Part shown: positions 5,540 through 53,527 of the stretch, one piece after another
How the letters are laid out: each line of letters begins with the position of its first letter
Numbering within the stretch: the first letter of the stretch is position 1
Source: Candidatus Omnitrophota bacterium
Lineage (GTDB): Bacteria; Omnitrophota; Gorgyraeia; 2-01-FULL-45-10
Assembly (NCBI GenBank): GCA_041650935.1
Contig: JBAZKH010000001.1
Location: forward strand, 347,337-411,336
Reading direction: 5' to 3'
Length of the DNA stretch: 64,000 nt
Program-made: the position numbers and the translations under genes
Notes under the pieces: model-generated
Databases searched by the model: none
What the model saw: only the letters and a program-made list of their open reading frames with translations
What the model was told of the DNA's origin: nothing

Positions 5540-5540
5540 T

Positions 5541-34463: not shown

Positions 34464-34467
34464 TATT

Positions 34468-36603: not shown

Positions 36604-36605
36604 AT

Positions 36606-37803: not shown

Positions 37804-37836
37804 TAAAAATAGTAACCAAAAATGGCGCAATGACTA

Positions 37837-38949
37837 ATGCAAAAACAAATTAATGCAATTAAAATGGGACAGAGATATTTATATGGTGACGATGGCTACA
37901 AAAAAAATTATAAAAAAGCGTTTAAATATTTGATGATTGGTGCCAATGCCTCTAACGCAGAATGTCAAAACGATATTGGATATTGCTATGATATGGGATT
38001 TGGAGTTAAAAAGAATCTTAAGCGTGCAATAGAGTGGTATTTAAAAGCAGCAGCCAAAAGAGATAAAGTTGCGTTGTGCAATTTAGGCATAGCGTATGAG
38101 TTCGGAAACGGAGTGAGCATAAATTATAAAAAGGCATTTCAATTTTATCGTAAATCCGCAACATTAGAGCATGCTGATGCACAGTGTAATTTGGGAACGA
38201 TGTATTTAGATGGGTTAGGAACAAAACAAAACTTACGTGAAGGAATTAAGTGGATAAGAAAAGCAGCATTAAATGGTGATTCTAAGGCTCAATATAATCT
38301 TGGAATGGCATATTTAGATGGGGAAGGAGTCAAGATAGATAAACAGGTTGCACTTGGTTGGTTAAAAAGAGCAGCGAGACAAGGGCATATAAAGGCGAGA
38401 AGAAGAATAGGCGTTATCCTACGAAAAAGAAATAGAGAAATAAAGGGGCATTCTACAAAGGCAGGCGAAGGTATGAATGACAGGGCTAAAGAAATCAATT
38501 TTTCAGAACTATTACCTATTTCTAAGATGAAGGGGGATGGCAGAGAAGATACCGCTAGACTTAAAGAAATGCACAAAGAAGCCGTTAATTATATTACATC
38601 TTTTTCTTGGTGTAAAAAAATTGAAGAAAAATATTTTGGTTTAGGTGTCGGAGATATTATAGGAATATATCTGTTTAAGATTCAGCCCTCTAAATCTGAC
38701 ATAAATAAATGGGTTTGGGTTGTGGTCGGAGATTTGCCTCCTGCCTACCTTGTCGTTGATAGGTCTCCTGACCCTGCCTCTGCATTAAATTCATACATAA
38801 GAGAGATGGATGAATGGGTTCAGGCGGTTAAAAAAGGTAAGCCAGTGGATGGTTTAATTCCCGTCAATGCACCTCCGACTGCTGAAAACGCTAAATTATT
38901 AAAAACTCGTTTAAAATTTCTCAAAAAAGAAATCTTGCCCTATTCTTAA
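37837..38949 (+). CDS. Sel1-like repeat (SLR) protein; putative immunity protein for the adjacent Rhs-CT toxin
   Basis: At least five Sel1 repeats (AIEWYLKAA...NLGIAYEFGNGV, AFQFYRKSA...NLGTMYLDGLG, GIKWIRKAA...NLGMAYLDGEG, ...). Markedly AT-rich compared with flanking genes. Immediately downstream of the toxin CT. Confidence 0.55.
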   Translation: MQKQINAIKMGQRYLYGDDGYKKNYKKAFKYLMIGANASNAECQNDIGYCYDMGFGVKKNLKRAIEWYLKAAAKRDKVALCNLGIAYEFGNGVSINYKKAFQFYRKSATLEHADAQCNLGTMYLDGLGTKQNLREGIKWIRKAALNGDSKAQYNLGMAYLDGEGVKIDKQVALGWLKRAARQGHIKARRRIGVILRKRNREIKGHSTKAGEGMNDRAKEINFSELLPISKMKGDGREDTARLKEMHKEAVNYITSFSWCKKIEEKYFGLGVGDIIGIYLFKIQPSKSDINKWVWVVVGDLPPAYLVVDRSPDPASALNSYIREMDEWVQAVKKGKPVDGLIPVNAPPTAENAKLLKTRLKFLKKEILPYS

Positions 38950-38956
38950 GAATAGA

Positions 38957-39075
38957 GGGGACGGTTCTATTTAATTTTTATTCGGCTCGATCACCTACTC
39001 TGAAGAGTCAGTCCCCCAGCCGTAATTAATGGTGCCAACCCAGAAGGTGCCACCCATTGCAGTACAGGAGATAAA
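38957..39075 (+). repeat. Copy 2 of the orphan-cassette leader, joined directly to the trailer element (RHS tip deleted)
   Basis: Leader at 38957-39022, then taattaatggtgccaacccagaaggtgccacccattgcagtacaggagataaa. Confidence 0.55.
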
Positions 39076-39252
39076 GGGTTCTATTTAATTTTTATTCGGC
39101 TCGATCACCTACTCTGAAGAGTTAGTCCCCCAGCCGTTCAAATTCAACGGTAAGTACGGAAACGGATCCGGTAAATGGGGTAATGGTGCTAACCCAGAAT
39201 GGGTAATGGTGCCAACCCAGAAGGTGCCACCCATTGCAGTACAGGAGATAAA
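39076..39252 (+). pseudogene. Copy 3: leader plus truncated RHS tip (FKFNGKYG only) plus internally duplicated trailer
   Basis: Leader at 39076-39136. RHS tip at 39137-39159, then diverges. ggtaatggtgc(t/c)aacccagaa is tandemly duplicated. Confidence 0.5.
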
Positions 39253-39549
39253 GGGTTCTATTTAATTTTATTTAATTTTTATTCGGCTCGATCACCTACT
39301 CTGAAGAGCTAGTCCCCCAGCCGTTCAAATTCAACGGTAAGTACGGCGTAATGCATGAACCAAACGGCTTCTACTACATGCGCGCCAGGTACTACGACCC
39401 TGATGTATGCAGGTTTATCTCGGAGGATCCGAGCGGGTTTAGCGGGGGAGACGTTAATCTATATGCCTACTGCGGGAATAATCCGATAAACTTCGCGGAT
39501 CCGTTTGGAATGTGGTAATGGTGCCAACCCAGAAGGTGCCACCCATTGA
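39253..39549 (+). pseudogene. Copy 4: leader plus complete RHS core tip ending DPFGMW-stop with no toxin domain, plus trailer
   Basis: Leader at 39253-39323 with a tttaatttta duplication. Tip ATG at 39351; stop at 39517-39519 two codons after DPFG. Synonymous-only differences from copy 1 in the tip. Confidence 0.55.
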
Positions 39550-39606
39550 GACGCATTGTGTCCCCGGGATTCGCGAGGCGAAAATCAAAATGATAAAAAG
39601 GACAGG

Positions 39607-40467
39607 TTATCTTCTTCGGATCCTGCGTACTGCCGCGCCCGCTAAACCAAACCCCAGAAGAAGGAAAGTCGAGGGTTCCGGAACAGAGTCGATGGAGCCT
39701 CTCACAGATACCCAATCCTTGACGCAGGTAACCTTGCTGACGTAGGTCTCGTAAGCAGTCCCGTATTCGGCATCCTCAAGCTCCGGGAATAGACTTTTGT
39801 CAATCCTGCCTTCCAGTATATAGGTATCTCCCGTCACCCCGGGTTCAATAGATCCCACACACTTATTATATACTTCGTATGTACCAAGGAGCGTATCGTC
39901 ATAATAATAAGTCCAGACGCCGTTAACGTAGCTACCATTGGCTACGGTAATTGGAAAAGTGTATGGCGACCCGTTATAATGCGCGGCCGTCGTCCAGACA
40001 GTATTCGTGCGATATACGCCCTTGGTCGATAGAGCGTTGATCGGAAGGGGGCAAAGGTCGAGCGCGTATGTGTACTTGCCGGTCTTAAGCAGGTCGTTGG
40101 AGGTCTTGCCGCTAAAATCGAGGAAGATACTCTCATGCGCCCATCCGTAACTGTAAGAATTCGATGATACGACGGCAAAATAGATAGAGTCACCGCGATC
40201 GTCGAAGTATACCGCTTCTATATCATATACCTCATTAAAAGGATCCGACCATGTATTGTTCGTATTGTCCTGGACGACATAGTCGACGCTCGAGCTGGTT
40301 GGAGTCCAATTCGTGAAAGGAGTAACGCCCCAGTCGCTAAGATCGCCGTTAAGCTGATATGATGAGTCCGCGAAAGAATTGCCGGCAAACAGGATAATAG
40401 CGCCTATGACTACCAAATACCTGAATATTGCGGCCAAGACCTTCTTTTCTCTATTTCCGGTAGGCAT
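39607..40467 (-). CDS. Secreted PEP-CTERM sorting-domain protein
   Basis: N-terminal signal peptide. C-terminal VPEPSTFLLLGFGLAGAAVRRIRRR (PEP motif plus TM plus Arg cluster). AGGAGG RBS. Confidence 0.7.
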   Translation of the reverse strand: MPTGNREKKVLAAIFRYLVVIGAIILFAGNSFADSSYQLNGDLSDWGVTPFTNWTPTSSSVDYVVQDNTNNTWSDPFNEVYDIEAVYFDDRGDSIYFAVVSSNSYSYGWAHESIFLDFSGKTSNDLLKTGKYTYALDLCPLPINALSTKGVYRTNTVWTTAAHYNGSPYTFPITVANGSYVNGVWTYYYDDTLLGTYEVYNKCVGSIEPGVTGDTYILEGRIDKSLFPELEDAEYGTAYETYVSKVTCVKDWVSVRGSIDSVPEPSTFLLLGFGLAGAAVRRIRRR

Positions 40468-40678: not shown

Positions 40679-40706
40679 TTGACAATGCCGCTTTATAATG
40701 TATACT
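40679..40706 (+). promoter_or_regulatory. Sigma70-like promoter (TTGACA-N16-TATACT) upstream of the small HTH gene
   Basis: TTGACA at 40679-84, TATACT at 40701-06, in an AT-rich 340-bp divergent intergenic region. Confidence 0.35.
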
Positions 40707-40814: not shown

Positions 40815-41012
40815 ATGCCAGAAGACATTGTCTTCACGGTTCAGGAAGTCGCTAAATACCTGAGGATGCAGCCCGTCACTATCTATAAGCACGCTAAGTG
40901 CGGGCGGCTTCCCTGTTTCAAGGTAGGGGCCAACTGGCGATTTAAGAAGTCCACAATAGACCGCTGGATATCTGAACAGGAAGAAAAAGAGAGTAACGGG
41001 CACTCAATATAA
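40815..41012 (+). CDS. Excisionase-family HTH (HTH_17) DNA-binding protein
   Basis: FTVQEVAKYLRMQPVTIYKHAKCGRLPCFKVGANWRFKKSTIDRWI. Confidence 0.6.
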   Translation: MPEDIVFTVQEVAKYLRMQPVTIYKHAKCGRLPCFKVGANWRFKKSTIDRWISEQEEKESNGHSI

Positions 41013-41062
41013 TACCCAATTTCGATTTCGAGATTGGGTATTATTATTTGCTACCTTTTTTT
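41010..41062 (+). terminator. Intrinsic terminator hairpin after the HTH gene
   Basis: aatacccaatttcga-ttt-cgagattgggtatt (15-bp stem, 1 mismatch), followed by tattatttgctaccttttttt. Confidence 0.45.
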
Positions 41063-41139: not shown

Positions 41140-42396
41140 TTGTCTGCAAATAACGCCGATAAGAGGGTTGTGGTAACCGGCATAGGCGTTTTGGCGTCTA
41201 ACGGCATCGGTAAGGACGCGTTCTGGCGGGCGCTTCGCGAAGGCAGGTCAGGCATCGGGCCGGTATCGCTATTCGATACGAGCGCGACCAGGGCGAAGCT
41301 TGCCGGAGAGATTGCCGGCTTTCATCCCGAAGAGTTCCTGGGCGCTAAGGGCCTGAGGACGTTCGACAGGGCGACGCGGCTCGTCCTCTCCGCCGCGAAA
41401 CTGGCGTTGGACGATGCCGGATTGAATGTGCCGCTTGACGAGGAGGTCTCTGCCAGGACGGGCGTATCCCTCGGTTCGACTTTGGGCAGTGTCCGTTCTA
41501 TAAGCGAATTCGACAAAGAGGGCCTGCGGAGCGGGCCGCGATCGGTCAACCCGGCATTATTCCCGAATACCGTCATAAACGCGCCGGCGAGCCAGGTCTC
41601 GATACGCTTCAATATCAAGGGTTTCAACGCTACGATATCCACGGGCTTCTCGGCGGGCCTCGACGCTATAGATTACGCGGCCAATTTTATAAAATTGTAT
41701 GATTACGATATCGTCCTCGCGGGCGGCATCGAAGAACTCTGCGAGCAGACCTTCCTGGGTTTTCATAAGATAGGGCACCTGGCGGGTTCGCGCGACGGCA
41801 AAGCCGAAATAGACTGCCCATTTGACAAGAGGCGTAACGGCATAATCCTGGGCGAAGGCGCATGCATATTAATATTGGAAGAAGCGGGCCGCGCTATGGA
41901 CAGGGGCGCTAAGATTTACGCCGAAGTCCTGGGATATGGGACTAGTTTCGATCCGGAGAGCAGGAATATATACAGCCCGAGAGCAAAGGGCGCTTCCAGG
42001 GCCATAAGTTTGGCTCTCGAGGACGCGCGGCTTGCCTCCGGGGATATAGACTACGTCTCGGCGACCGCCAACTCGACGCTCGATTGCGACGTGATGGAGA
42101 CCAGGGCCATAGAGGCCGTTTTCGGCGATAAGGCGAAGGCAGTCCCGGTCAGCGCCATAAAGTCGATGACCGGCGATACGTTTAGCGCGGGCGGCGCCAT
42201 GAACGTGGCCGCGTCGATCGGCGCGATGGAGGGCGGTTTTCTCCCGCCGACCATCAACTATAGGGAAGCGGATGACCGGTGCGGGCTCGATTGTGTGCCG
42301 AATACCGCGCGGGCGGCCGCTATCGACAAGGTTCTCGTAAACTCTTTTACGCCGACCGGCATAAATTCGAGCCTGGTGATAGGACGATATGCTTAA
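41140..42396 (+). CDS. Beta-ketoacyl synthase-like protein lacking the Cys-His-His triad (chain-length-factor / KS-beta-like partner)
   Basis: Full KAS fold (FabF-like), but the active-site Cys position reads TISTGFSAG (Phe), the His positions read SATANST (Ala) and KSMTGDTFSAGG (Asp). TTG start with RBS. Confidence 0.7.
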   Translation: MSANNADKRVVVTGIGVLASNGIGKDAFWRALREGRSGIGPVSLFDTSATRAKLAGEIAGFHPEEFLGAKGLRTFDRATRLVLSAAKLALDDAGLNVPLDEEVSARTGVSLGSTLGSVRSISEFDKEGLRSGPRSVNPALFPNTVINAPASQVSIRFNIKGFNATISTGFSAGLDAIDYAANFIKLYDYDIVLAGGIEELCEQTFLGFHKIGHLAGSRDGKAEIDCPFDKRRNGIILGEGACILILEEAGRAMDRGAKIYAEVLGYGTSFDPESRNIYSPRAKGASRAISLALEDARLASGDIDYVSATANSTLDCDVMETRAIEAVFGDKAKAVPVSAIKSMTGDTFSAGGAMNVAASIGAMEGGFLPPTINYREADDRCGLDCVPNTARAAAIDKVLVNSFTPTGINSSLVIGRYA

Positions 42397-43123
42397 AGAT
42401 AGAGTTGCGATAGTTACGGGAGGCGCCCGCGGTATAGGAAAGGCCATCGTCCTTGAGCTTGTAAAAAGCGGCGCAAAAGTCGTCTTTACATACCTGAAGA
42501 GCGAGGCGGCTGCTGCCGAACTCTTGGACCGGATAAAAAAGTCGGGCGGTGAGGCCGCGGCGGTCAAGTCGGATTCGAAAGATTTTGTGGAAGCCAGGGC
42601 GGCCGTGAAAGAGACGCTCAATAAATTCGGCAGGATCGACATCCTTGTCAATAATGCCGGGATAATAAAGGATAAGGCGCTGATGATGATGGAGCCCGCG
42701 GAGTGGCAGGATGTTATAGATACCAATCTTACGGGATACTTCAACATGGCGAAGGCGTGCATCGTTACGATGATGAAACAGCGGAGCGGCAATATCATAA
42801 ACATCTCTTCGGTTGCCGGCATAGTAGGGACGCCGCGCCAGGTGAATTACGCGAGCGCCAAAGCGGGAATAACCGGTCTTACCAAGTCCCTGGCCAAAGA
42901 GGTCGCTTTATATAATGTCAGGGTCAATGCCGTCGCGCCGGGCTACATAGAGACCGATATGACAAGCGCGCTGAAGAACAGGGATAGCCTCCTGAAATTT
43001 ATTCCTTCCGGCAGGTTCGGGACGCCGGAAGAGGTTGCGCGGGCGGTCTCATTCCTTGCCGGCGAAGAATCCGCGTATATAACCGGCCAGGTCATAAAGG
43101 TCGACGGCGGGCTGGCGATATGA
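42389..43123 (+). CDS. fabG: 3-oxoacyl-ACP reductase (SDR family, FabG-like)
   Basis: VAIVTGGARGIGKAI cofactor motif. NAG, YxxxK (YASAKAG) catalytic motifs. Confidence 0.8.
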   Translation: MLKDRVAIVTGGARGIGKAIVLELVKSGAKVVFTYLKSEAAAAELLDRIKKSGGEAAAVKSDSKDFVEARAAVKETLNKFGRIDILVNNAGIIKDKALMMMEPAEWQDVIDTNLTGYFNMAKACIVTMMKQRSGNIINISSVAGIVGTPRQVNYASAKAGITGLTKSLAKEVALYNVRVNAVAPGYIETDMTSALKNRDSLLKFIPSGRFGTPEEVARAVSFLAGEESAYITGQVIKVDGGLAI

Positions 43124-43782
43124 AAATGAAAATATTAAAAGTCACTATAATAATAGGGATGCCATTACTGGTTATCGCGCTGTTTTTAGCCGGCCCCGCA
43201 ATTAAAGGAAAACTCTTATTCAGCGCATTTATTCTCCTTGCCGTATTTGAAAGAGCGTGGGAGGGTTTGTGCACGAGTAGGGATAAGGATTCCGATAAGA
43301 TCGAGGGAGACTGGACTCTTCCTATTTCGGCGTTATCCTATATTATTCTTGTCATTCTTTGTTTGGCCGAATTCTACTCTGTTCCGCGGATACCAAATCT
43401 GATTATTGCTTCTATGGGTTTATGTGTTTACGTCTCGTCGATCGCTTTGCGCTTATGGTCGATCAATTCTCTGGGCGATCAATGGTCGATACATATTATC
43501 GGCGCAGATAAGCTAAACGGCCAAAGGCGCCTTGTGTGCAAAGGTCCATATAGATATATACGGCATCCCGTTTATCTCGGGATCATATTGGAGCAGATAA
43601 GTATCCCGCTAGCCGCAAATTTATATTATACGGCAATAATTGCAGCGTGCTTCGCAATACCGTTTCAGATCATTAAAGCAAGGCTGGAAGAGGGGGAGAT
43701 GGAAAAACGTTTGGGCGCCGTCTATAAAGAATATATCAGCAAAACCCCCCGCTTTAATATATTCAATATGAGGCATGCATGA
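43120..43782 (+). CDS. Membrane methyltransferase of the isoprenylcysteine carboxyl methyltransferase (ICMT)/PEMT-like family
   Basis: Multi-TM. C-terminal RLVCKGPYRYIRHPVYLGIILE signature of the ICMT/phospholipid methyltransferase family. Confidence 0.5.
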   Translation: MKMKILKVTIIIGMPLLVIALFLAGPAIKGKLLFSAFILLAVFERAWEGLCTSRDKDSDKIEGDWTLPISALSYIILVILCLAEFYSVPRIPNLIIASMGLCVYVSSIALRLWSINSLGDQWSIHIIGADKLNGQRRLVCKGPYRYIRHPVYLGIILEQISIPLAANLYYTAIIAACFAIPFQIIKARLEEGEMEKRLGAVYKEYISKTPRFNIFNMRHA

Positions 43783-44798
43783 ATAAGCTCGTCTGGATAG
43801 GGCATTATATAGAGGCTAAAGACGCGTTCCGGTTTAATAACTTCACATCCCCGTCCAGGTTAATTAATAAGATGTTTATCGAAGTAAATAAAAGAATGCC
43901 GCCCTATATATTTTCACAGCTCGAAAATAGCGCCAGGGCGATAAAAATTTACGGCGTCATAGCGCCCCTATTGCCGTCCGAGATCGCATCCGCCAGTAAG
44001 GCGCGGCAATTTGATCTTATCGGGCGGGCCATCGATATCGCCAACCGCGTGGGAGCCGGCCAGATCGGCCTGGCCGCCTTATTTGCTTCCCTGTGGGAAG
44101 ACGGCGCAGGCATTAAAGAGCTCACCGATGCGCATATTACGACAGGGAAAAACCTGATCGCGGCGCTGGTCCTGGATTATATATCGAAAGGCATCGGGCT
44201 TCTTGGCAGGGACCTTAAAGACCTGACAATAGGTATTATCGGATACAGGAACCGGATAGCCAAAATATTTGTAACTCATTATCTGGATAAAGTAAAGATG
44301 ATCCTGGCCGATGACGGCGGCGAGAAGGTATCTTTTAACGACATATTCAGCAAGTCTGACGCCATTATTGTAACGACGATGGGGGTCGGTTTGGCGGACT
44401 ACATAGATAAGATAAAGCCGGGAACAATAGTCTGCGATATCGTCGTGCCTTATCACTTAACCACGGAGATAAGAAAAAGGCGTAAAGATGTATTTGCCTT
44501 TGAAGGGGTCTGGTCAAGATACAAAGATCTGGATACCTATACCGGGAAGGATATAAAGAGGTTGTTTCCCGGCAATGTGATACCGGCTTGTATGGGAGAG
44601 CCGATAATATTGGCTCAGGAAAAGCGGCTTGGTAATTTTTCGCTGGGCGGCAATATTAATCACGACAATGCGCTGCTTATGCGTTCTATGATTGCAGGCA
44701 ACGGATTCGATTTCTTTGGTTTTAAACAGGGCGGCGGGGTCTATTCGCAGGGCGATATTGACAAAATGAAGGTTTCTTACTCATTGCAAAGGAGGTGA
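43779..44798 (+). CDS. Hypothetical protein with a putative Rossmann-like NAD(P)-binding segment
   Basis: LTIGIIGYRNRIAKIFV and AIIVTTMGVG resemble dinucleotide-binding motifs. No confident family assignment. Confidence 0.35.
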   Translation: MNKLVWIGHYIEAKDAFRFNNFTSPSRLINKMFIEVNKRMPPYIFSQLENSARAIKIYGVIAPLLPSEIASASKARQFDLIGRAIDIANRVGAGQIGLAALFASLWEDGAGIKELTDAHITTGKNLIAALVLDYISKGIGLLGRDLKDLTIGIIGYRNRIAKIFVTHYLDKVKMILADDGGEKVSFNDIFSKSDAIIVTTMGVGLADYIDKIKPGTIVCDIVVPYHLTTEIRKRRKDVFAFEGVWSRYKDLDTYTGKDIKRLFPGNVIPACMGEPIILAQEKRLGNFSLGGNINHDNALLMRSMIAGNGFDFFGFKQGGGVYSQGDIDKMKVSYSLQRR

Positions 44799-44802
44799 GA
44801 GA

Positions 44803-45060
44803 ATGAAAGTGATAGCGGCAGATGTTCTTGAAAAAGAGATTCGCTCGATAGCGGCAGAGGTATTGGAGTTGGATGAGGGCAGGATCACGCCCGGCGCGAA
44901 ATTTGTGGAAGACCTGGGTATGGATTCGATGATGGCCCTGGAAATACTGGCGGCGGCCGAGAAGAAGTTTGGGATCAAGATCCCGGAGGAGTATCTTACA
45001 AAAGTGACGAGTGTCGGCAGTATGGTTGAAATTGCTCAAAAGATCATGACGGGAAAGTAG
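44803..45060 (+). CDS. Acyl carrier protein
   Basis: 85 aa. DLGMDSMMALEI phosphopantetheine-attachment motif. Confidence 0.8.
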   Translation: MKVIAADVLEKEIRSIAAEVLELDEGRITPGAKFVEDLGMDSMMALEILAAAEKKFGIKIPEEYLTKVTSVGSMVEIAQKIMTGK

Positions 45061-45063
45061 GAT

Positions 45064-46281
45064 ATGGGTTACGGGAGAGTTGTTGTTACCGGCATAGGCA
45101 TAATTTCCTCTATAGGGATAGGCGTGGATGAATTCTGGTCTAATTTAATAGCCGGTAAATCCGGCATAAGCGCGGTCGAATCTTTCGATACATCAAAATA
45201 CGAAAATCATAGAGGCGGTGAAGTTAAAGGTTTCAACCCTTTGGATTTTATAAACGAAACTAAGATAAAAAACACGGGAAAAACATCGCAGTTTGGGATT
45301 GCCGCAGCCAGGCTGGCGATTAAAGATAGCCGGTTAAGTATCGATTCAACGATATCCGGCCGAATGGGCGCTATTATGGGAACGACTATGGCCGATTCGC
45401 AGAGGCTGGAGGAGATGGATAAAGTGTGGATAGAATCCGGGGAAAAGGAAGTGGATCCGGCCCTTATATCTCAGTATCCGGGTAACTCCATATCTGCCGC
45501 TATCGGATTTGAGTTAGGCTTGAAAGGGGTGGTATCGGTCATACCTACGGCCTGTTCGGCCGGTAATTATTCGATAGGCTATTCTTATGATCTGATCCGA
45601 ATGGGGAAGATGGATGCGATGCTGGCCGGCGGGTCCGATTCTTTTTCACGGGTTGCTTTTACGGGATTTAACAGACTTTTTGCCGTTGCGCCGGAAAAAT
45701 GCCAGCCCTTCGATAAAAACAGGAAAGGCATGATAGTTGGAGAGGGGGCGGGAGTGCTATTACTGGAATCGCTGGATAACGCTTTGAATCGAAAAGCAAA
45801 AATATATACCGAAATATCAGGATATGCCTTGAGCTGTGACGCGCATCATATGACAGCCCCGTCGCCCGACGGTATATCGAAAGTGATAAAAAAAGCTATC
45901 AAAAATTCCGGGATAGATCCCGATGATGTTGATTACGTATCCGCTCACGGCACCGGCACGCTGGCAAATGATAAAGCAGAGTGTCAGGCTATCGCGGAAG
46001 TGTTTAAAGAAAGGTATAAAAAAATACCCGTAAGCTCGATCAAGTCTATGCTGGGTCACACGATGGGCGCGGCAAGCGCCATAGAGGCCGCCGCCTGCTG
46101 TCTCGCTATAAAGAATAGCATGGTTCCCCCGACCATTAATTACGAAACACCGGATCCCGAATGCGATATCGACTGCGTGCCGAACAGGGCGCGCAAGTAC
46201 GATGTCCGGGTAGCGCTTAATAATTCACTGGCATTCGGCGGAAATAACGCATGTTTGGCGGTAAGGAAAATAAATTCATGA
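45064..46281 (+). CDS. Beta-ketoacyl-ACP synthase (FabF/KS-alpha-like, catalytically intact)
   Basis: Active-site PTACSAG, SAHGTGT and KSMLGHTMGAAS (Cys-His-His present). Confidence 0.85.
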   Translation: MGYGRVVVTGIGIISSIGIGVDEFWSNLIAGKSGISAVESFDTSKYENHRGGEVKGFNPLDFINETKIKNTGKTSQFGIAAARLAIKDSRLSIDSTISGRMGAIMGTTMADSQRLEEMDKVWIESGEKEVDPALISQYPGNSISAAIGFELGLKGVVSVIPTACSAGNYSIGYSYDLIRMGKMDAMLAGGSDSFSRVAFTGFNRLFAVAPEKCQPFDKNRKGMIVGEGAGVLLLESLDNALNRKAKIYTEISGYALSCDAHHMTAPSPDGISKVIKKAIKNSGIDPDDVDYVSAHGTGTLANDKAECQAIAEVFKERYKKIPVSSIKSMLGHTMGAASAIEAAACCLAIKNSMVPPTINYETPDPECDIDCVPNRARKYDVRVALNNSLAFGGNNACLAVRKINS

Positions 46282-46724
46282 TAAATCCGGGAATAGGAAA
46301 AGTGTTAAATATATTGCCTCAACGGTATCCTTTTCTATTCATTGACAGGATAGTAGAATTCGAAAAAGGGAAAAAGGTTGTTGTCCTGAAGAATGTGACA
46401 GCCAATGAGAGTTATTTTACCGGTCATTTTCCGCAGCGTCCCGTAATGCCCGGGGTGCTCCTGATAGAAACTATGGTCCAGGCCGGAATGATCTTTTTGA
46501 GTTTAAATTCTTTAGCGGATATAAAGGACGCGAAAAGCGCGGATATCTATTATCTATGCTCGGTTAAGGCCCGTTTTTTAAAACCTGCCGCGCCGGGCGA
46601 TCAGGTTTTTGTAGAGATCGCGCCTGTAAAAACGACAAAAGATCTTGGTATAGTGAAGGCTGTAGCTATGGTGGATGGGAAAGAGATAGCGCGGGCCGAG
46701 ATAGCGGGAGCGCGGCAGAAATAG
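46278..46724 (+). CDS. fabZ: 3-hydroxyacyl-ACP dehydratase FabZ-like
   Basis: LPQRYPFLFIDRIV...GHFPQRPVMPGVLLIETMVQ hot-dog dehydratase motif. Overlaps the KS stop. Confidence 0.8.
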   Translation: MINPGIGKVLNILPQRYPFLFIDRIVEFEKGKKVVVLKNVTANESYFTGHFPQRPVMPGVLLIETMVQAGMIFLSLNSLADIKDAKSADIYYLCSVKARFLKPAAPGDQVFVEIAPVKTTKDLGIVKAVAMVDGKEIARAEIAGARQK

Positions 46725-46737
46725 TCATGAGGCGCAT

Positions 46738-47328
46738 ATGGATACCGGTGAGCTTTTTTCATTGTTAAAAGATAGGCGGACGGTACGGTTATATCAAAAA
46801 AAACAGATCCCCAGGGCTCTGGTAGAAAAAATTATTGATGCGGGGCGCTGGGCATCGTCGCTTCACGGATTTCAACCATGGAAGTTCTTTGTAGTCAGGA
46901 AAGAGGAGACGATCAAGGCTATAGCCGGAGATGCCTTTAACAGGTCTAAAAAGTTATATGCGGGGTACAACTTTATATTGCGCTCAACAGGTGAAACGAT
47001 CGCGAACGCTCCCACGGTAATAGTGATCTATGACAAAGGTTTGATACAAAAAAAGATGAACAAGATGGGGGGTACGTACCGCAAGTGCGCAAAGATCTCG
47101 GAAGTCCAGGCGATTTCCGGCGCGATACAAAATATGATCCTGATGGCGCACGCCCTCGGAGTGGTATCGTGCTGGCTGGTCTTCCCGATATTTTGTGAAA
47201 AGGCTGTTAATAAATTGTTGGGATTCGACGGACAAATGATTGCGATGTTAACCTTAGGATATCCTGCCGAAGCCGGCGTTAGATCGGCGAGGAAGCCTAT
47301 AGATGAAACGGTTGGATATGTCGAATGA
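46738..47328 (+). CDS. Nitroreductase-family (FMN-dependent) oxidoreductase
   Basis: LLKDRRTVRLYQKK...RWASSLHGFQPWKFFVV nitroreductase-fold signature. Confidence 0.65.
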   Translation: MDTGELFSLLKDRRTVRLYQKKQIPRALVEKIIDAGRWASSLHGFQPWKFFVVRKEETIKAIAGDAFNRSKKLYAGYNFILRSTGETIANAPTVIVIYDKGLIQKKMNKMGGTYRKCAKISEVQAISGAIQNMILMAHALGVVSCWLVFPIFCEKAVNKLLGFDGQMIAMLTLGYPAEAGVRSARKPIDETVGYVE

Positions 47329-48791
47329 ACGATAAATATGATGTGGTAATAATCGGTTCCGGGATAGGCGGCTTAATTTGCGCCTGTTACCTGGCCAAAG
47401 CAAAGCAGAGCGTCTTAGTCATAGAACAGCATAATGCGCCGGGAGGGTATTGCACCTCTTTCAGTAGAGGGAAATACAGGTTCGATGTCGGAGTGAGATA
47501 TTTTGCGGGTATTGAAAAAGGAACCATGGGAAGGATCCTTGACGAACTTAGCATTAAAAAAACATTGGGTTTTAGACAATTCGATCCGACCGATAAGATA
47601 ATCGATCCCGATGGCGTAACGTATCTGCGGGCTAATCCTGATGATACGATCATCGGATTACAAAAAGAATTTCCCTGCGAAAAAGAAAATATACGAAAAT
47701 TATTCCGGTTTATGATGGATCCCGATTTTTTAAATATCTACAGCAAGGTAAAGAAGATGTCGTTTGCGGAGGTAATAAACAGCCATTTTTCCGATGAGCG
47801 ATTAAGGTTTATTATGAATTCTTTGATATTCTGCAACAATGGGTTAGCGGCAGACGAAGTAAGCGCCGTTTTCGCGATTATCATATTCCGTAATTATTTA
47901 TTGGACCCGGGATATTATCTTGCCGGAGGCGTCCAAAGTTTCCCGGACGCGCTGGTATCCATGCTCCGGCAATACGGAGGCGAGTTGAAATTATCTACCA
48001 AGGTTACAAGGATCATTACGAAGGATTCAATAGTAAAGGGCGTGGAATGTGAAGATGGCTCAGTATTCGATTCCGACACGGTCGTTGCCAATGTCGACGC
48101 AACCCAGGTTTTTACAAAATTATTGGATATTAAGTCCAGGGAGGCATCGGTAGTTAATATGCTGGAGCCGTCCAATTCGACATTTATCGCTTATATCGGG
48201 TTAAGCTGCAATATCAGCGGGCATCTCTCGGATCAATGCGGGATCCTCTATTTCTCGAGCCATAATGTTAAAGACCTGAGGATCCCAAAGAAGGATTATG
48301 GCCCGGAGAACGCTTTCATGAACGGTATTATTTGTGAATTCCCGTCATTGCATGATCCTGCATCGGGAGCTTCCGGCAACTCTTCGGTCACTTTAGCGAT
48401 CCAGGCTCCTTTCAAACCGGGATGTGAATGGGAAAAGATGAGGAAAGATTTCGAAACGCGGATAATCGAAAAAGCGGAAAAAGAAATATTCAAATTCCAA
48501 TTCAAAAAATATATCGAGCTTGCATTGACAGCAATTCCCGACACCTTATTAAGGTACACTTCCAATCGGGCAGGCGCATTATTTGGTTGGGCATCGCTCA
48601 GGAATCAGGTAAACATGTCCATTCTCCCTCCCAGGACTACGATCGAGGGTTTGTATTTGGCCGGACATTGGTGCACGATAGGTTCCGGCCATGGCGGCGT
48701 AACCGGAGTTGCTTTGTCGGGAAGGAAGACGGCCGAGATCATTATGAAGCAAAAGAGTAAGGACTGGGGATATGCCATACTTAAACCATAA
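47325..48791 (+). CDS. Phytoene-desaturase-like FAD-dependent oxidoreductase (CrtI/COG1233 family)
   Basis: N-terminal YDVVIIGSGIGGLICACYLAKAKQSVLVIEQHNAPGGYC FAD-binding fold. About 488 aa. Confidence 0.75.
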   Translation: MNDKYDVVIIGSGIGGLICACYLAKAKQSVLVIEQHNAPGGYCTSFSRGKYRFDVGVRYFAGIEKGTMGRILDELSIKKTLGFRQFDPTDKIIDPDGVTYLRANPDDTIIGLQKEFPCEKENIRKLFRFMMDPDFLNIYSKVKKMSFAEVINSHFSDERLRFIMNSLIFCNNGLAADEVSAVFAIIIFRNYLLDPGYYLAGGVQSFPDALVSMLRQYGGELKLSTKVTRIITKDSIVKGVECEDGSVFDSDTVVANVDATQVFTKLLDIKSREASVVNMLEPSNSTFIAYIGLSCNISGHLSDQCGILYFSSHNVKDLRIPKKDYGPENAFMNGIICEFPSLHDPASGASGNSSVTLAIQAPFKPGCEWEKMRKDFETRIIEKAEKEIFKFQFKKYIELALTAIPDTLLRYTSNRAGALFGWASLRNQVNMSILPPRTTIEGLYLAGHWCTIGSGHGGVTGVALSGRKTAEIIMKQKSKDWGYAILKP

Positions 48792-48808: not shown

Positions 48809-50983
48809 ATGTGGCTTAATGTTTTTGGAGTAGGAAGTATCTGTATCGTTATCTCGAGTATCTTGATGGGGATAACTGTTTTTGCGAAAAGCCAGGATAA
48901 AAAACTTGGTAATGTATGGGGCTTTTTCTGCATTGCGGTGACCCTCTTCGGGATCGGTACATTTATGGTCTCTATTATTCCGGCTTCATCATATTCTAAC
49001 GCGTTATTTTGGTGGCAGGTGGCATATCAGGGGGCTATATTTTCGGTAGTTTTCTTTAGCCATTATGTAATCAACTATCTGAAATTGGACAAAAAGATAT
49101 TCATACGTTCCATATATTTCATGGCTTTCGTATTTTCATTTTTTAATTGGTATAAAAATTCCGAATATTTGATCGGCAATATGTATTTTGTTTTTGGGCA
49201 GTTTTATTGCCCGGATTGGATCAAGTATAAAAATCCGATCTGGCTGGTCATGTACATAACGTTTTTCATATTTCTACTCGGTTATACCTTTTGGCTTTTA
49301 CTTCGAAGTTACCTATCCTCGCCAAGCGCAGATCGTAATCAGCTAAAATATTTCATGCTGGGCTCTGTCTTCGGATGGGTAGGCGCGCATGCTGATTTTT
49401 TGATCTGCTTTAGGGTGCCGCTCTATCCGTTCCTCCATTTCTGCGTCGCTTTTTATACCATAATCTTTACATATGCCATAGTGCGCTACCAGCTTATGGC
49501 TATAGAAGTTATCGTGCGCAAGACCCTTGTCTTTGCAGGGTTATTAGCCTCGGTATTTGCGATGCTTATCCTACCGACCTTGATCCTCCAGGAATATATA
49601 TTCAGGAGTGCCGGCGCCGGCGGCAAGATCGTAGGTTTTGTAATAAGCGGCATCATAATCATCCTTACAATGCATCGGATCGAGTCTTTCCTTATCAATG
49701 TCACGGATAAATACCTCTTCCAGAAGAAATACGATTACAAGGCATTACTGCGGACATTTACGAACGAGGTCCTGACGGTGCTCGAGCTGGATAAGCTGGT
49801 GAACCTGACGGTCGATAAGCTGTCGGATATCATAAAACTTAATTCGGCGGCAGTCTTGCTCTTCAATGAAGAGGAACAGCAGTTCGAAGTTGCGGCACAG
49901 CGAAACGTAAAAGACCCGGACGTTAAGCTTATCCGGCCAGACGGTATAGTGACTTTTATGGAAGCTACGCAGGGCTATCTTCTGGTAAAAGAACTCATCG
50001 CCAGGAAGATATCTATTCCCGCGGCGATCCGGGAAATAATAGATAAGCTGAGCGCGGAACTGGTTATCCCTATGGTGATGCACGAGAAGCTTATAGGCAT
50101 ATTGTCTCTGGGCAAGAAGAAGTCGGATGAAGATTATTCGGAGGACGACCTCGACATACTACTGCCTTTGGCGAGGACGCTCGCGATAGCGATCTCGAAC
50201 GCCCAGCTCTTCGACGAGCTGGGCAAGACGCAGGCCGACGCGGCGCAGAAGGATAAGATGGCGGTCATCGGCACGCTCTCAGCCGGGATAAACCATGAGA
50301 TATGTAATCCGTTAGGCATAGCGCGCGGCCAGTGCGAGGCGTTCCTCTTAAACCTCAAAGACGGCCTTTACAAGTCCAAGACCAACGAGGAGCTTCTTAC
50401 CAAAGCCAGGGAGATAATGGCGAAGGTGATCCATGAGACCGACAGAGCGACCGCTATTACGAAGAAGCTTTCCCAGTTTGCCAAGCCGTCGAAAGGGGAC
50501 CTGGAGTGGGTGAATGTAGAAAAAGAGGTAGACGATGTCCTGGGTCTTGTGGGTTACGAATTGAAGCTGGAGAAGATCGAGTTCGAGAAACATATCTCTA
50601 CGACACTGCCTCAGATATTCGTGGACAGGAAACAACTGCAGGAGGTTCTCTTCAACCTTGTCCGCAATGCCGGACAGGCCATAGGCGAGAAGGGCAAGGT
50701 TATAATTACCGCGAAAGAAGAGAGGAATAAGGTAATTATCGATATCAAGGATACGGGCAGCGGCATACCGCCCGACAAGGTCAAGGAGCTATTCAATCCG
50801 TTCTTTACGACGAAAGAACCCGGTAAAGGGACGGGCCTGGGGCTTTTTATCGTCAGCCGTGTCGTAGAGCGGAACGGCGGCCGTATCTACCTTAAAGAGA
50901 CGAAGGTGGGCGAGGGGACGACGTTTACGCTCGAATTCCCGGTGGCGAGTAAGAGTGAGGTGACGCAAGCGGAGAAAAGTTAA
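48809..50983 (+). CDS. Membrane sensor histidine kinase (multi-TM sensor, GAF, HisKA, HATPase_c)
   Basis: About 7 TM helices. GAF region. HEICNPL H-box. DTGSGIP...GTGLGL ATPase motifs. Confidence 0.8.
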   Translation: MWLNVFGVGSICIVISSILMGITVFAKSQDKKLGNVWGFFCIAVTLFGIGTFMVSIIPASSYSNALFWWQVAYQGAIFSVVFFSHYVINYLKLDKKIFIRSIYFMAFVFSFFNWYKNSEYLIGNMYFVFGQFYCPDWIKYKNPIWLVMYITFFIFLLGYTFWLLLRSYLSSPSADRNQLKYFMLGSVFGWVGAHADFLICFRVPLYPFLHFCVAFYTIIFTYAIVRYQLMAIEVIVRKTLVFAGLLASVFAMLILPTLILQEYIFRSAGAGGKIVGFVISGIIIILTMHRIESFLINVTDKYLFQKKYDYKALLRTFTNEVLTVLELDKLVNLTVDKLSDIIKLNSAAVLLFNEEEQQFEVAAQRNVKDPDVKLIRPDGIVTFMEATQGYLLVKELIARKISIPAAIREIIDKLSAELVIPMVMHEKLIGILSLGKKKSDEDYSEDDLDILLPLARTLAIAISNAQLFDELGKTQADAAQKDKMAVIGTLSAGINHEICNPLGIARGQCEAFLLNLKDGLYKSKTNEELLTKAREIMAKVIHETDRATAITKKLSQFAKPSKGDLEWVNVEKEVDDVLGLVGYELKLEKIEFEKHISTTLPQIFVDRKQLQEVLFNLVRNAGQAIGEKGKVIITAKEERNKVIIDIKDTGSGIPPDKVKELFNPFFTTKEPGKGTGLGLFIVSRVVERNGGRIYLKETKVGEGTTFTLEFPVASKSEVTQAEKS

Positions 50984-51017: not shown

Positions 51018-51395
51018 ATGACACAGACTAAGCCGCGGATTGTTGCGATAGACGACGAAGCAGAATTTATACAAATGCTGCAGGAGTATTTCGAGCCGCG
51101 CGGATACGAATTACATGTCGCGGTGCGCGGCGCGAGAGGTATCGAGCTTGTGAAGGAGAAGAAGCCGGATGTCCTGCTGATGGACCTGAAGATGCCCGGG
51201 ATCGACGGTGACGAGGTGTGGAAATTACTGCAGTCGATGTCGCCGCCGCCAAAGGTGATATTTGTCACGGCTTATGATGACGGCGGCAAGACGAAAGCGA
51301 GGCTTCTCAAGATGGGCGCGTACGCCTGTCTCGACAAACCGATATCATCGCTCAAGGATTTGGAGGGACTTATAAACAAGGCCTTTACGTCGTAA
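51018..51395 (+). CDS. Single-domain response regulator (CheY-like receiver)
   Basis: IVAIDDE...DVLLMDLKMPGIDG receiver motifs. Confidence 0.8.
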   Translation: MTQTKPRIVAIDDEAEFIQMLQEYFEPRGYELHVAVRGARGIELVKEKKPDVLLMDLKMPGIDGDEVWKLLQSMSPPPKVIFVTAYDDGGKTKARLLKMGAYACLDKPISSLKDLEGLINKAFTS

Positions 51396-51448: not shown

Positions 51449-51805
51449 ATGAAGAAGATACTGGTAGTCGACGACGAACGCGACATATGCGACTTTGTGC
51501 AGAGCTTCTTCAGGGAGAGGGGATATGATGTCCTTACGGCTTCGAGCGGTGAGGATGCGTTAACGGCAGTTAAAAATGACAGGCCCGACCTGATCCTTCT
51601 CGACATAAAGATGAAGGGTATGGACGGTATAGCGGCGCTGAAACATATCAAAGATCTTGATAAGAAGATAAAGGTTGTTATGGTGACGGCTCTCGAGGAC
51701 CAGGAGAGGATGGACGAGGCCTGCAGGCTTGGCGCATGCGAATATATAACAAAACCACTCGTTCTCGACCATCTGGAGCGCGCCGTGGAAAATAATTTAA
51801 AATAA
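51449..51805 (+). CDS. Single-domain response regulator (CheY-like receiver)
   Basis: ILVVDDE...DLILLDIKMKGMDG receiver motifs. Confidence 0.8.
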   Translation: MKKILVVDDERDICDFVQSFFRERGYDVLTASSGEDALTAVKNDRPDLILLDIKMKGMDGIAALKHIKDLDKKIKVVMVTALEDQERMDEACRLGACEYITKPLVLDHLERAVENNLK

Positions 51806-51820: not shown

Positions 51821-53170
51821 ATGGATAAACCTAGAAAAGCGCCAAGCTGGGATAAGCTCCATAATATATTTGTGGAGAACTCCGTGAGCCGGAACGGAAA
51901 TCTTTCCGGCCAGGCAGGGGATCCGGCTAACGAAAGGTTGCAGATGGCGAACCCGACTCCAAAATACGACTACCAGGCTTTCCTGGAGAAGGCGTCCAGG
52001 ACCATGATAAGGTTCAAGAAGCCGGAACATCTCATCAAGATGATCGTGAAGACGATCGACGAGCAGCTCAAGGTTACGCACACGGCAGTTTTGCTCTTCA
52101 AGGAACACAGGCACTCATATATCCTTATAGATTCCAAAGGTTCGCAGGGCGTAAAGATACCGATAGGGTTCATAAAATTGGTGGCGGACAACCCGCTCAT
52201 CAGCGTATTCAGCGAAAAGCAGAGTTACCTTATATCAGAGACGGGCATACTGCGTTATGACGATGTCATCCTGGGCCTGCGGAATCGCGAGATACTGGAA
52301 CGCCAGCCCGAACTTTACGACAAGCTCCTGCTCATAAAAAAGCAGATGGACCTTATAAAGGCGAGGCTCTGCGTGCCGTGTTATTTCAAACGCGACCTCC
52401 TGGGTGTGCTCGTCCTGGGCGAGAAGATCTCGGGCGAGACGTTTACAAGGGAGGAGATGGGCTTCTTCGTCACGCTGGCCAACGATGCCGCGATGGCGAT
52501 CGCGAACGCGCTCCTCATCGAGAACTTACAGCAGAAGATCGAGGAGATAAAAGAGCTATATGTCCGCGAGCACCGCATATTTATCCATACGGCGATAGCG
52601 ATGGCCGCGGCGATCGACGCGCGGGACCCGTATACGCACGGCCACACAGAGCGCGTCACGACATATTGCCTGGCGATCGCCAGGGAGCTCGAGGGTATCC
52701 CCGAGATGGCGGGCTACAAGAATTTCAGGGAGACGCTGCAAATAGCGGCGCTTCTCCATGACATAGGTAAGATCGGCGTTCCCGACCACATCCTGAACAA
52801 ACACGGTAAGCTGGCGCCGGAGGAGTTCGAAGAGATAAAGAAGCATTCGATAATCGGCGCGACGATCCTCCATCCGATCAAGGAACTGGCCGACGTCGCG
52901 CGCGAGGTGCGCCACCATCAGGAGTGCTTCGACGGTTCCGGTTATCCGGACGGGCTTAAAGGTATCGATATACCGCTGATCGCGCGGATCATCTCCGTCG
53001 CGGATGCGTTCGACGCCATCACTACCGACCGGCCCTACAAGAAGAAAAAGAGGATAGAGGACGCGATAGCGGAGATTAAGCGTTGCTCGGGCGCGCAGTT
53101 CGATCCTGTCATAGTGAGCGCGTTCCTGCTGGCTTACGAAAAAGGGAACATTATAACCGGCAGCAATTAA
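51821..53170 (+). CDS. GAF-domain HD-GYP phosphodiesterase (c-di-GMP)
   Basis: HTERVTTY...LLHDIGKIGVPD (HD) and FDGSGYPDGLKG (GYP). Confidence 0.8.
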   Translation: MDKPRKAPSWDKLHNIFVENSVSRNGNLSGQAGDPANERLQMANPTPKYDYQAFLEKASRTMIRFKKPEHLIKMIVKTIDEQLKVTHTAVLLFKEHRHSYILIDSKGSQGVKIPIGFIKLVADNPLISVFSEKQSYLISETGILRYDDVILGLRNREILERQPELYDKLLLIKKQMDLIKARLCVPCYFKRDLLGVLVLGEKISGETFTREEMGFFVTLANDAAMAIANALLIENLQQKIEEIKELYVREHRIFIHTAIAMAAAIDARDPYTHGHTERVTTYCLAIARELEGIPEMAGYKNFRETLQIAALLHDIGKIGVPDHILNKHGKLAPEEFEEIKKHSIIGATILHPIKELADVAREVRHHQECFDGSGYPDGLKGIDIPLIARIISVADAFDAITTDRPYKKKKRIEDAIAEIKRCSGAQFDPVIVSAFLLAYEKGNIITGSN

Positions 53171-53441
53171 TTTCTTGTTTATCGCTATAAATCCACTATA
53201 ATAGATACTTATATAAACAGAGAGGTTTCATCTTGGCTAATGCGAGCGGAACCCCAGTTTCTCAGTCCTCTGATTTGAGAGGATTTTATAAAGGTAATTA
53301 TAGGTAAATGAAAGGCTTGCGTACGAAAGCCTTTCTTAAAATGTTAAGACATCAAAAATATAGTTTTTCTTTGTTGACAACCTTGGTTTTTGTGATAACC
53401 TTATCTATACTTTAGTAGAATTTTGGAAGGAACAGATTAAA

Positions 53442-53474: not shown

Positions 53475-53527
53475 ATAAATAAGGAGATTAAGTAAGTTAG
53501 CAATATAAAAACATGGGAGGATTAGAA

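Follow-up and report, generated by a model that had tools for sequence, protein, structure and literature searches.

Gene content of the locus

A compact cluster of lipid-biosynthetic genes, built around a ketosynthase (KS) and a second, catalytically inactive KS, lies within a stretch of 64,000 nucleotides (hereafter the 64-kb window, or the window) from a metagenome-assembled genome (MAG) of Candidatus Omnitrophota. Open reading frame (ORF) listing and profile searches confirm nine ORFs on the + strand at 41140-48791: KS1, the inactive partner and an orthologue type of anammox amxFabFmut (41140-42396; PF00109, 1.8e-38; PF02801, 2.6e-26); a FabG-like 3-ketoacyl-ACP reductase (KR; 42389-43123; adh_short_C2, 1.5e-65); an integral-membrane methyltransferase of the ICMT/PEMT family (43120-43782; PF04140, 2.5e-14); ORF4, a protein of 339 amino acids with no Pfam match, which a profile and a structure model assign to a divergent branch of the AAR/PigE-N/TAD fold (43779-44798); a dedicated acyl carrier protein (ACP) with a DSM motif (44803-45060; PP-binding, 2.2e-15); KS2, an active FabF-like KS with a Cys-His-His triad and an orthologue type of amxFabF2 (45064-46281; 1.7e-41 and 1e-37); a FabZ-like 3-hydroxyacyl-ACP dehydratase (DH; 46251-46724; 4.7e-30); a nitroreductase-fold FMN flavoprotein, which is a variable accessory gene (46738-47328; 2.3e-28); and a flavoprotein of the CrtI/amine-oxidase superfamily that is homologous to the phytoene-dehydrogenase-like protein (PDH) of anammox bacteria (47325-48791; 3.3e-24). 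The probable start of the DH gene is its second ATG, at 46278, overlapping the stop codon of KS2.

A preliminary description of this DNA had listed the same nine genes in the same order; all are present where it placed them, and profiles support their families. Its impression of overlapping or tightly packed genes corresponds to overlaps of 4-8 bp and gaps of 3-17 nt between neighbours. Its borders need widening, as the conserved unit spans the HTH_17 gene (start 40815) through the HD-GYP gene (end 53170), and the gene that it called an unknown Rossmann protein is real but is better identified, from profiles and the model, as an AAR/PigE-N-like enzyme of thioester off-loading (ORF4).

Alignment with KS2, whose Cys-His-His triad is intact, shows that KS1 (38% identical) carries Phe, Thr and Asp in place of Cys, His and His, and retains the Lys. 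Among sequences of the PDB, the best match of KS2 by a wide margin is chain B of structure 9s5h (58% identity, 515 bits, E 9e-154), ahead of Iga11 (366 bits) and Bacillus subtilis FabF (341 bits), and KS1 is most similar to chain C of the same structure (380 bits, E 1.6e-112, 46-49% identity), its next match scoring 274 bits. Structure 9s5h is the amxFabF2/amxFabFmut heterodimer of Cluster I, the putative ladderane cluster of anammox bacteria; the two proteins form a KS/chain-length-factor (CLF)-like heterodimer, malonyl-ACP is decarboxylated only when both are present, and C6-C8 probes are preferred (bioRxiv 10.64898/2026.05.19.726425). Chain 9s5h_C is approximately 90% identical to Brocadia proteins, and the Brocadia Cluster I locus (L014) encodes ACP, FabZ, FabF2, FabFmut, PDH and a B12-binding radical-SAM enzyme (B12-rSAM). 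Both window proteins are nearest to FabF among NCBIfam models, yet both fall below the FabF equivalog cut-off (TIGR03150: 443 bits for KS2 and 367 for KS1 against 493.75). In neighbour-joining (NJ) trees, rooted with an Escherichia coli FabF sequence, the active KS proteins form one clade and the inactive partners another; each clade holds both anammox and Omnitrophota sequences, indicating that the pair either predates the split of these lineages or moved as a pair. The Phe at the position of the lost Cys is kept in all Omnitrophota KS1 orthologues inspected, apart from a Tyr in one locus (L017). Among Omnitrophota KS1, although dead, is consistently better conserved than KS2 (mean identity 70% versus 63%), which points to strong selection on a non-catalytic or other, undescribed function.

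The CrtI-like protein is also related to Cluster I: it matches the Brocadia PDH, a protein of equal length, over 487 amino acids (32% identity, E 3e-72), and its best curated and solved matches are much weaker (crtI_fam, 107 bits; CrtD, 4rep, 79 bits). The anammox PDH is as near to the PDH proteins of Omnitrophota as these are to one another, and a PDH-type gene is present in every related locus. We regard it as firmly established that the KS pair and PDH are homologous to their counterparts in anammox Cluster I, and likewise the gene anatomy of the unit.

The remaining chain-building proteins are less distinctive. The ACP is 43% identical to Brocadia amxACP, which is its best match in the PDB (7qv0_D, 64 bits) by only about 5 bits over other ACPs, and it scores 60.8 against a cut-off of 70.45 on the AcpP equivalog model TIGR00517. 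The DH is 46% identical to Brocadia amxFabZ, but canonical FabZ gives a slightly higher score, and its assignment to the amxFabZ type is not supported; it passes NF000582 and reaches only 17 bits on the ApeI-like model (cut-off 28.5). The KR narrowly exceeds the cut-off of TIGR01830 (301 bits versus 298), and on the model of the flexirubin protein FlxB it scores 264 bits, under the cut-off of 340. Genes for FabD, FabH, enoyl reductase (ER; FabI/K/L/V), Acc and Pls are found neither in the cluster nor elsewhere in the 64-kb window, and neither the tested proteins of the window nor the called genes of any Omnitrophota locus match PF02310 or PF04055 (B12-binding and radical-SAM domains).

Putative release enzymes and conservation of the unit

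Profiles and a structure model suggest that ORF4 probably off-loads the chain from its carrier. The protein is identical to WC522_01715 of NCBI, encoded on a 710,442-bp contig of a Candidatus Omnitrophota MAG. ORF4 has profile matches to PigE (7.5e-10) and AAR (3.4e-6), and its family aligns (hhalign, 99.9%) with a canonical AAR-like protein encoded at the same position in a related locus (L010), which itself matches PigE at 4e-35 and AAR at 6e-30. The AlphaFold (AF2) model of ORF4 (pLDDT 92.5) has carmabin TAD (9e4s, E 3e-16) and AAR (6jzq, TM 0.72) as its top Foldseek matches; a single-sequence search of the PDB matched PigE alone, the relationship to AAR and TAD emerging with the profile and the structure model. 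Cys271, invariant in the ORF4 family, is aligned with the acyl-accepting Cys294 of AAR and Cys296 of PigE, a PACxxE-type position. The dinucleotide loop of ORF4 is degenerate, reading GYRNRIA (family consensus GYKNRIS) versus the GATGDIG of AAR and of the L010 protein. [quoted passage not shown] With 12 members in 5.8 billion sequences, the ORF4 family is tiny; because the subtype is rare, its profile recovered just one locus in the genome scan and three in the metagenome scan.

The gene set of the window recurs in eight further Omnitrophota-type loci (L001, L003, L006, L008, L010, L012, L013 and L017), and this recurrence argues that the arrangement is not due to chance. The constant frame is an HTH_17 gene, KS1, a release slot, KR, ACP, KS2, the variable nitroreductase gene, PDH, a sensor kinase with seven transmembrane segments (7TM), two receivers (REC) and a GAF-HD-GYP gene. 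Relatives of KS1 at 66-85% identity fill more than 120 clusters (clustered at 90% identity), and all the named ones are from Omnitrophota. The release slot is occupied by the ICMT gene plus ORF4 in the window, L001, L003 and L006, by a canonical AAR-like protein in L010 and L013, and by an NAD_binding_4 thioester reductase in L008 (MxaA, 1e-32) and L017; in L012 the slot protein is missing and a LuxD-like hydrolase-methyltransferase fusion is found instead. The ICMT gene always adjoins an ORF4-type gene; loci whose reductase is of the canonical AAR-like or NAD_binding_4 type lack it. The types of release enzyme are scattered over the KS1 tree, such that L008, L013 and the window, 74-79% identical to one another in KS1, have three different systems. 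The FabG-like KR is found in all Omnitrophota loci examined except L017, in which it is missing and a GMC oxidoreductase is added. A DH gene is present in the window, L001, L006 and a more distant locus (L015), most Omnitrophota loci having none, and the nitroreductase gene, lacking in L001 and L008, occurs in the window, L003, L010, L012, L017 and, as two copies, L013.

Mean pairwise identities, computed across seven loci, are highest for the HTH_17 protein (80%), followed by the first receiver and the HD-GYP protein (71% each), KS1 (70%), KR (68%), the second receiver (67%), KS2 (63%) and ACP (59%), and are lowest for PDH and the nitroreductase (37% each). The identity of PDH is uncorrelated with that of KS1 (r = -0.04). 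This pattern of divergence suggests that the parts that would set the final structure of the product, along with the membrane sensor domain of the kinase (see below), are the fast or exchangeable parts of the unit.

As to the wider family, a full scan of 1.84 billion representatives yielded many 50%-identity clusters of inactive KS partners, in which the three triad positions read x-x-Glu/Asp, as well as many fusions of a KS with a dead KS. One such fusion (P0253) was set aside as uninformative for this system because it sits in an unrelated, aromatic-polyketide-like cluster (L019, a KS-CLF fusion locus with a Polyketide_cyc domain). Locus L015 encodes a methyltransferase, KR, dead KS, DH, KS, ACP and PDH, followed by a MASE8-PAS hybrid membrane kinase, so that a different kind of membrane kinase occupies the position of the 7TM kinase. 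A locus of Candidatus Poribacteria (L018) encodes KS, dead KS, DH, ACP, PDH and KR. Locus L016 (L016:8755-21242; GCA_964409165.1, CAYPCH010000026.1), which is Cluster I-like and lies outside the named anammox taxa, encodes KS, dead KS (FSE), ACP, DH, KS, dead KS (VSE), two B12-binding radical-SAM proteins, an activase of the BcrAD/BadFG type, a PDH-like protein and two HGD-D subunits, with SLH and SpoIIT genes as neighbours. One L016 KS is the sister of Brocadia amxFabF2 in the NJ tree. The source of L016 is a possible producer of cyclised lipids outside the anammox bacteria.

Sensor module, candidate regulator gene and surroundings

The preliminary description placed a sensor kinase, two CheY-like proteins and an HD-GYP protein directly after the cluster. 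Domain searches bear this out, identifying a HisKA_7TM-GAF-HisKA-HATPase sensor histidine kinase (48809-50983, +), two stand-alone CheY-like receivers (51018-51395 and 51449-51805, both +) and a GAF-HD-GYP protein of the cyclic di-GMP (c-di-GMP) phosphodiesterase type (51821-53170, +; HD_5, 1e-39), in which the HDIGK and HHQECFDGSGYP motifs are intact inside the HD_5 domain. The linkage recurs in the Omnitrophota loci that extend far enough: in the window, L001, L003, L008, L010, L012, L013 and L017, the kinase gene comes directly after the final biosynthetic gene. The preceding gene is usually PDH, with which the kinase gene overlaps by 4 bp in L001 and L003; in L012 it is the hydrolase-methyltransferase fusion, and in L013 the second nitroreductase gene. 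Compared with its closer relatives, the window kinase is 25-31% identical in the 7TM part and 68-80% identical in the GAF domain and kinase core; compared with the more distant L003, the latter part is 43-59% identical. Both receivers are devoid of a DNA-binding output, and the output domain of the module is the HD-GYP domain, that is, c-di-GMP hydrolysis. Accordingly, the earlier suggestion that the module could regulate the cluster stands as to linkage and is doubtful as to control; it is at least as likely that the lipid feeds the sensor as that the sensor controls the lipid genes.

Two side observations concern this module. A gap of 750 bp without a called gene follows the PDH gene of L010 (16624-17374), whose kinase is called without its 7TM region; this may be due to a frameshift, an assembly error or a real loss of the sensor domain. 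Proteins with PilZ domains, which are c-di-GMP receptors, are encoded near the module in L001 (18849-19310) and L015 (5709-6488, a REC protein with a weak PilZ match); these neighbours are consistent with a c-di-GMP theme, two loci being far too few for more.

The unit opens with a gene for an HTH_17 (excisionase/MerR-like) DNA-binding protein of 65 amino acids (40815-41012, +; PF12728, 1.7e-14), a candidate regulator of the unit. HTH_17 genes encoding 62-72 amino acids are located directly upstream of KS1 in L008, L010, L012, L013 and L017, and directly upstream of DH in L001; in L013 and L017 the gene is retained despite a different context further upstream. A sigma-70-like promoter (TTGACA-16-TATACT, 11/12 positions; 40679-40706, +) precedes the HTH_17 gene of the window, as a consensus match in a region where the total of such sites does not exceed the shuffled expectation. 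Immediately after the HTH_17 stop codon, a stem-loop followed by a U-rich tract (41009-41044, +) is supported by folding (16-17 bp in the stem, -21.2 kcal/mol, z = -6.8) and by conservation: a stem of 14-17 bp occurs at the same place in six loci (the window, L001, L008, L010, L012 and L013), both sides are altered with pairing kept in 8 of 14 pairs, and the arm sequence AATACCCAAT is common to four loci. This hairpin, to which no Rfam family corresponds, resembles a terminator or attenuator that separates the regulator gene from the pathway. Past the last gene, a consensus scan found a terminator-like hairpin with a 13-bp stem and a T-run (53439-53468, +).

The order GatB...TsaD, MgtC, bactofilin-HTH, LarB, LarC, PDZ and HAMP upstream of the unit is common to the window, L008, L010 and L012, indicating that the module was vertically inherited in these genomes. 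In the window the genes for the LarB-like (AIRC) and LarC-like (Ni_insertion) proteins and the subsequent HAMP protein occupy 33723-37220. LarC is fused to PDZ domains (711 amino acids) in the window and L001, and the PDZ protein is separate in L008, L010 and L012; neither LarE nor LarA was seen in the 64-kb window. Between the HAMP and HTH_17 genes is an insertion of lower GC content (37315-40467; 0.43) that carries an ORF of 162 amino acids, a Sel1-repeat protein and a PEP-CTERM protein on the minus strand, and is missing from the syntenic loci L008, L010 and L012. Directly 3' of the terminator-like hairpin, a region of low GC content (53513-57784; 0.39-0.41) encodes a HEAT-repeat protein of 1423 amino acids. 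Towards the beginning of the window, the regions 536-2258 and 3257-7657 contain genes for two Lcl_C-domain proteins followed by a type IV pilus set (PilM/N/O/secretin); an ORF of 604 amino acids without a Pfam match is located at 9490-11304. Scans of the 64-kb window for tRNA genes and Rfam families gave zero matches. Nearly all genes of the window are encoded on the + strand, both GC and AT skew stay positive along its whole length, and the cumulative skew rises monotonically; owing to this skewed composition, long antisense ORFs (for example 41869-42822 on the minus strand, 317 amino acids) are probably artefacts.

Possible products and comparison with known systems

The cluster is very probably specialised rather than part of housekeeping metabolism, and from its sequence we tentatively favour the reading that it makes a specialised lipid in reduced or methylated form, coupled to and probably sensed by the co-transcribed kinase. 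By analogy with 9s5h, KS2 and KS1 would form a KS/CLF-like heterodimer with control over chain length, which would extend an acyl chain on the dedicated ACP, possibly priming itself by decarboxylation of malonyl-ACP, after malonyl loading by a FabD presumably encoded elsewhere. The KR and the FabZ-like DH would process the beta-carbon; since the cluster encodes no enoyl reductase, an oxygenated or unsaturated chain is expected. The PDH-like and nitroreductase-fold flavoproteins may further desaturate, isomerise or saturate it, and ORF4 would then remove it from the ACP, either as an aldehyde or, together with the paired ICMT methyltransferase, as a methylated neutral product. Such a hydrophobic product could enter the membrane and be sensed by the 7TM domain, whereupon the phosphorelay would alter c-di-GMP; the lipid would be a self-produced cue rather than a bulk membrane component. 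A ladderane is not expected, because no B12 radical-SAM enzyme was found among the proteins tested. The preliminary description had held that the product cannot be named from sequence, and we concur.

Sensing of the product is suggested by four features: neither receiver carries a DNA-binding output; translation of the kinase is coupled to that of the pathway; in a distant lineage (L015) the same place is taken by a membrane kinase that is not homologous; and release and tailoring functions vary from one close relative to another, in the manner of lipid autoinducer systems. The lipid may be the ligand of the kinase, although we consider this somewhat doubtful. In its fullest form, the signalling reading describes a phylum-wide system in which a short- or medium-chain unsaturated lipid, released as an aldehyde, alcohol or methyl ester, is the cognate ligand of the 7TM kinase; we consider this version rather unlikely. 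It would further have lineage-specific swaps of release enzymes and flavoenzymes set the exact structure, perhaps for the sensing of self, kin or host, and the module may represent a simpler form that anammox bacteria turned into a ladderane pathway by adding B12 radical-SAM enzymes.

Several observations weigh against the favoured reading. The vertical conservation of the locus across the phylum in a housekeeping neighbourhood, and the membrane-lipid synthesis that its anammox relatives are thought to serve, would fit a structural lipid equally well. The divergence of PDH does not co-vary with that of the 7TM domain (Spearman 0.13, 21 pairs), giving no support for a ligand/receptor pair. Transmembrane regions generally diverge faster than soluble domains, so the contrast between the 7TM part and the core of the kinase is only suggestive. 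ORF4 is without two of the three glycines of the NADPH loop of AAR, which makes reductive release by this protein uncertain; most Omnitrophota loci are without DH, so chain building must rely in part on enzymes elsewhere; and the terminator-like hairpin between the HTH_17 gene and the biosynthetic genes leaves the transcriptional organisation unsettled.

The chief alternative is a specialised lipid with a structural role, for example an unusual fatty alcohol, aldehyde or ester of the envelope, perhaps ether-linked as in anammox bacteria, with the kinase acting not as a signal receptor but as a DesK-like sensor that monitors the state of the membrane and adjusts c-di-GMP. In favour of this, the cluster of the nearest relatives is believed to produce membrane lipids; the locus, located beside housekeeping genes, shows vertical conservation across the phylum; KS1, KR and KS2 are highly conserved; reductive release would supply alcohols or aldehydes for ether lipids; and PDH and the 7TM domain do not co-vary. 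We nevertheless judge a structural role rather unlikely: acyltransferase, glycerol-linking and ether-forming genes are found in no locus; very close relatives have exchanged one release chemistry for another and their flavoenzymes are only about 37% identical, which would be unusual for a core membrane component; and the sensor genes are translationally coupled to the pathway instead of controlling it via a DNA-binding regulator.

Primary fatty-acid synthesis, with the cluster as the fabG-acpP-fabF locus of Omnitrophota plus extra genes, is highly improbable. The order KR-ACP-KS2 in several loci does resemble fabG-acpP-fabF, KS2 passes the cut-off of the broad subfamily NF005589 (426 versus 387), FabG narrowly passes TIGR01830, DH passes NF000582, and the locus is conserved in the phylum within a housekeeping region. 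Nonetheless, KS2 and ACP miss the FabF and AcpP equivalog cut-offs; a conserved inactive KS, a PDH homologue and a thioester-release enzyme are integral to the unit; neither the cluster nor the 64-kb window, which is part of a 710-kb contig, has genes for FabD, FabH, enoyl reductase, Acc or Pls; the KS pair groups with the pair specific to anammox bacteria, whose genomes encode a canonical FabF as well; and an older antiSMASH survey counted an average of two 'fatty acid' clusters in each OP3 bin (PMC5383146). In proposing a specialised type II cluster, akin to fatty-acid and polyketide synthases, the preliminary description is upheld by the equivalog misses, the inactive KS and the cluster's own ACP. 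Its KS/dead-KS pair also stands, with the triad lost in KS1 and present in KS2, but its comparison of the cluster with aryl-polyene (APE) and flexirubin systems does not. A KS/CLF-like pair with ACP, KR and DH but no ER follows the logic of APE clusters too, and the KR reaches 264 bits on FlxB, though below the cut-off of 340. However, FabF models and the anammox pair (515 and 380 bits) give the KS proteins far higher scores than do the polyketide and other KS models of NCBIfam, the DH reaches only 17 bits on the ApeI-like model (cut-off 28.5), and neither the window cluster nor any related locus has genes for APE-type DHs (ApeI/ApeP), aryl-starter synthesis or activation, thioesterase, acyl- or glycosyltransferase, or LolA/MMPL export, as such a pigment cluster would require; we consider a pigment of this type hardly tenable. 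The APE/flexirubin and aromatic-polyketide readings were rejected together on KS scores, active-site residue and gene content, the aromatic type II class having a CLF with Gln at the Cys position, where Phe is found here, and cyclase/aromatase genes; a Polyketide_cyc domain occurs in none of these loci. It is likewise very improbable that Omnitrophota make ladderane-like cyclobutane lipids with a radical-SAM partner encoded elsewhere. Four of the six Cluster I genes have homologues here, and antiSMASH labels clusters in Omnitrophota MAGs as 'ladderane' (PMC9902471); but a B12-binding radical-SAM protein was found neither among the tested proteins of the operon and the 64-kb window nor among the called genes of any Omnitrophota locus, the lipids have been reported from anammox bacteria only, and the loci carry release enzymes and signalling genes in place of the radical-SAM enzyme.

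The closest known system, whose core is the only studied relative of the module, is anammox Cluster I (KustE3603-3608: amxACP, amxFabZ, amxFabF2, amxFabFmut, PDH and B12-rSAM; structures PDB 9s5h/9s5i). Shared with it are an active KS and a triad-less KS of the same orthologous clades (58% and 46-49% identity), an ACP (43%), a PDH-type flavoprotein (32%) and, in the window, a FabZ-type DH (46%), and in both cases ER, FabD and FabH are not in the cluster. Unlike Cluster I, the window cluster has no B12 radical-SAM enzyme and adds a KR, an AAR-fold release enzyme with ICMT, a nitroreductase-fold flavoprotein, a small HTH gene and the co-transcribed 7TM kinase, two receivers and HD-GYP protein. 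At the dead-site Cys position, the core loci of Omnitrophota have Phe (L017 has Tyr) and anammox bacteria Val, Ile or Thr; the DH is not specifically of the amxFabZ type and is missing from most Omnitrophota loci; and the host is not a known ladderane producer. Cluster I is said to occur exclusively in ladderane producers (PMC10139942; bioRxiv 10.64898/2026.05.19.726425), and this exclusivity has been the main argument for its role in ladderane biosynthesis, a question open for more than 20 years. The conservation of homologues of the KS heterodimer, ACP and PDH across Omnitrophota without a radical-SAM enzyme, and the presence of Cluster I-like genes in at least three other lineages (L015, L016 and L018), of which L016 has B12-rSAM genes, alters that argument: the ladderane-specific part is narrowed to the radical-SAM step, and perhaps amxFabZ, and the KS-heterodimer/PDH core is implied to have a more general product. 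Clusters free of radical-SAM genes are, moreover, simpler material for heterologous reconstitution of the core. Surveys with antiSMASH mention 'ladderane' clusters for Omnitrophota and further phyla but do not analyse them (PMC9902471); we found no published description of the orthology of the KS pair, the release-enzyme slot or the fixed coupling to the 7TM kinase and HD-GYP protein.

The ishigamide proteins Iga11/Iga12 (PDB 6kxd) and the APE proteins ApeO/ApeC resemble the window cluster in combining an active and an inactive KS with ACP, KR and DH and no ER. Iga11 is the second-best solved match of KS2 (366 bits), well below the anammox pair; unlike the Iga and APE systems, the window cluster has no amide-forming, aryl-starter or export genes, and PDH and a reductive or methylating release are features of the window cluster and not of those systems. 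[quoted passage not shown] It differs in its GYRNRIA loop (GATGDIG in AAR), in having no aldehyde-deformylating oxygenase or aminotransferase as partner, and in the ICMT gene that is always beside it.

Lipid quorum-sensing operons offer a parallel in architecture only. They include rpfF/rpfC/rpfG of Xanthomonas, with diffusible signal factor (DSF) as signal and an HD-GYP output, phcBSRQ of Ralstonia, with methyl esters of 3-hydroxy fatty acids as signal, and cqsA/cqsS of Vibrio; methyl ester or reduced head groups yield neutral diffusible lipids. Unlike in Rpf and Cqs, the synthase would here be a whole KS/ACP module with no sequence relation to RpfF (a crotonase; no crotonase domain was found in the locus) or to CqsA (a PLP enzyme), and unlike in Rpf, the HD-GYP protein carries a GAF domain and not a receiver. 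As in these systems, genes for lipid synthesis stand beside those for a polytopic kinase and receivers, with the HD-GYP output shared with Rpf. A lipid assembly line fixed to a 7TM kinase and an HD-GYP protein is accordingly a testable candidate for lipid-based signalling, which, if true, would be a previously undescribed form of it in an uncultured phylum of ultra-small, possibly host-dependent nanobacteria.

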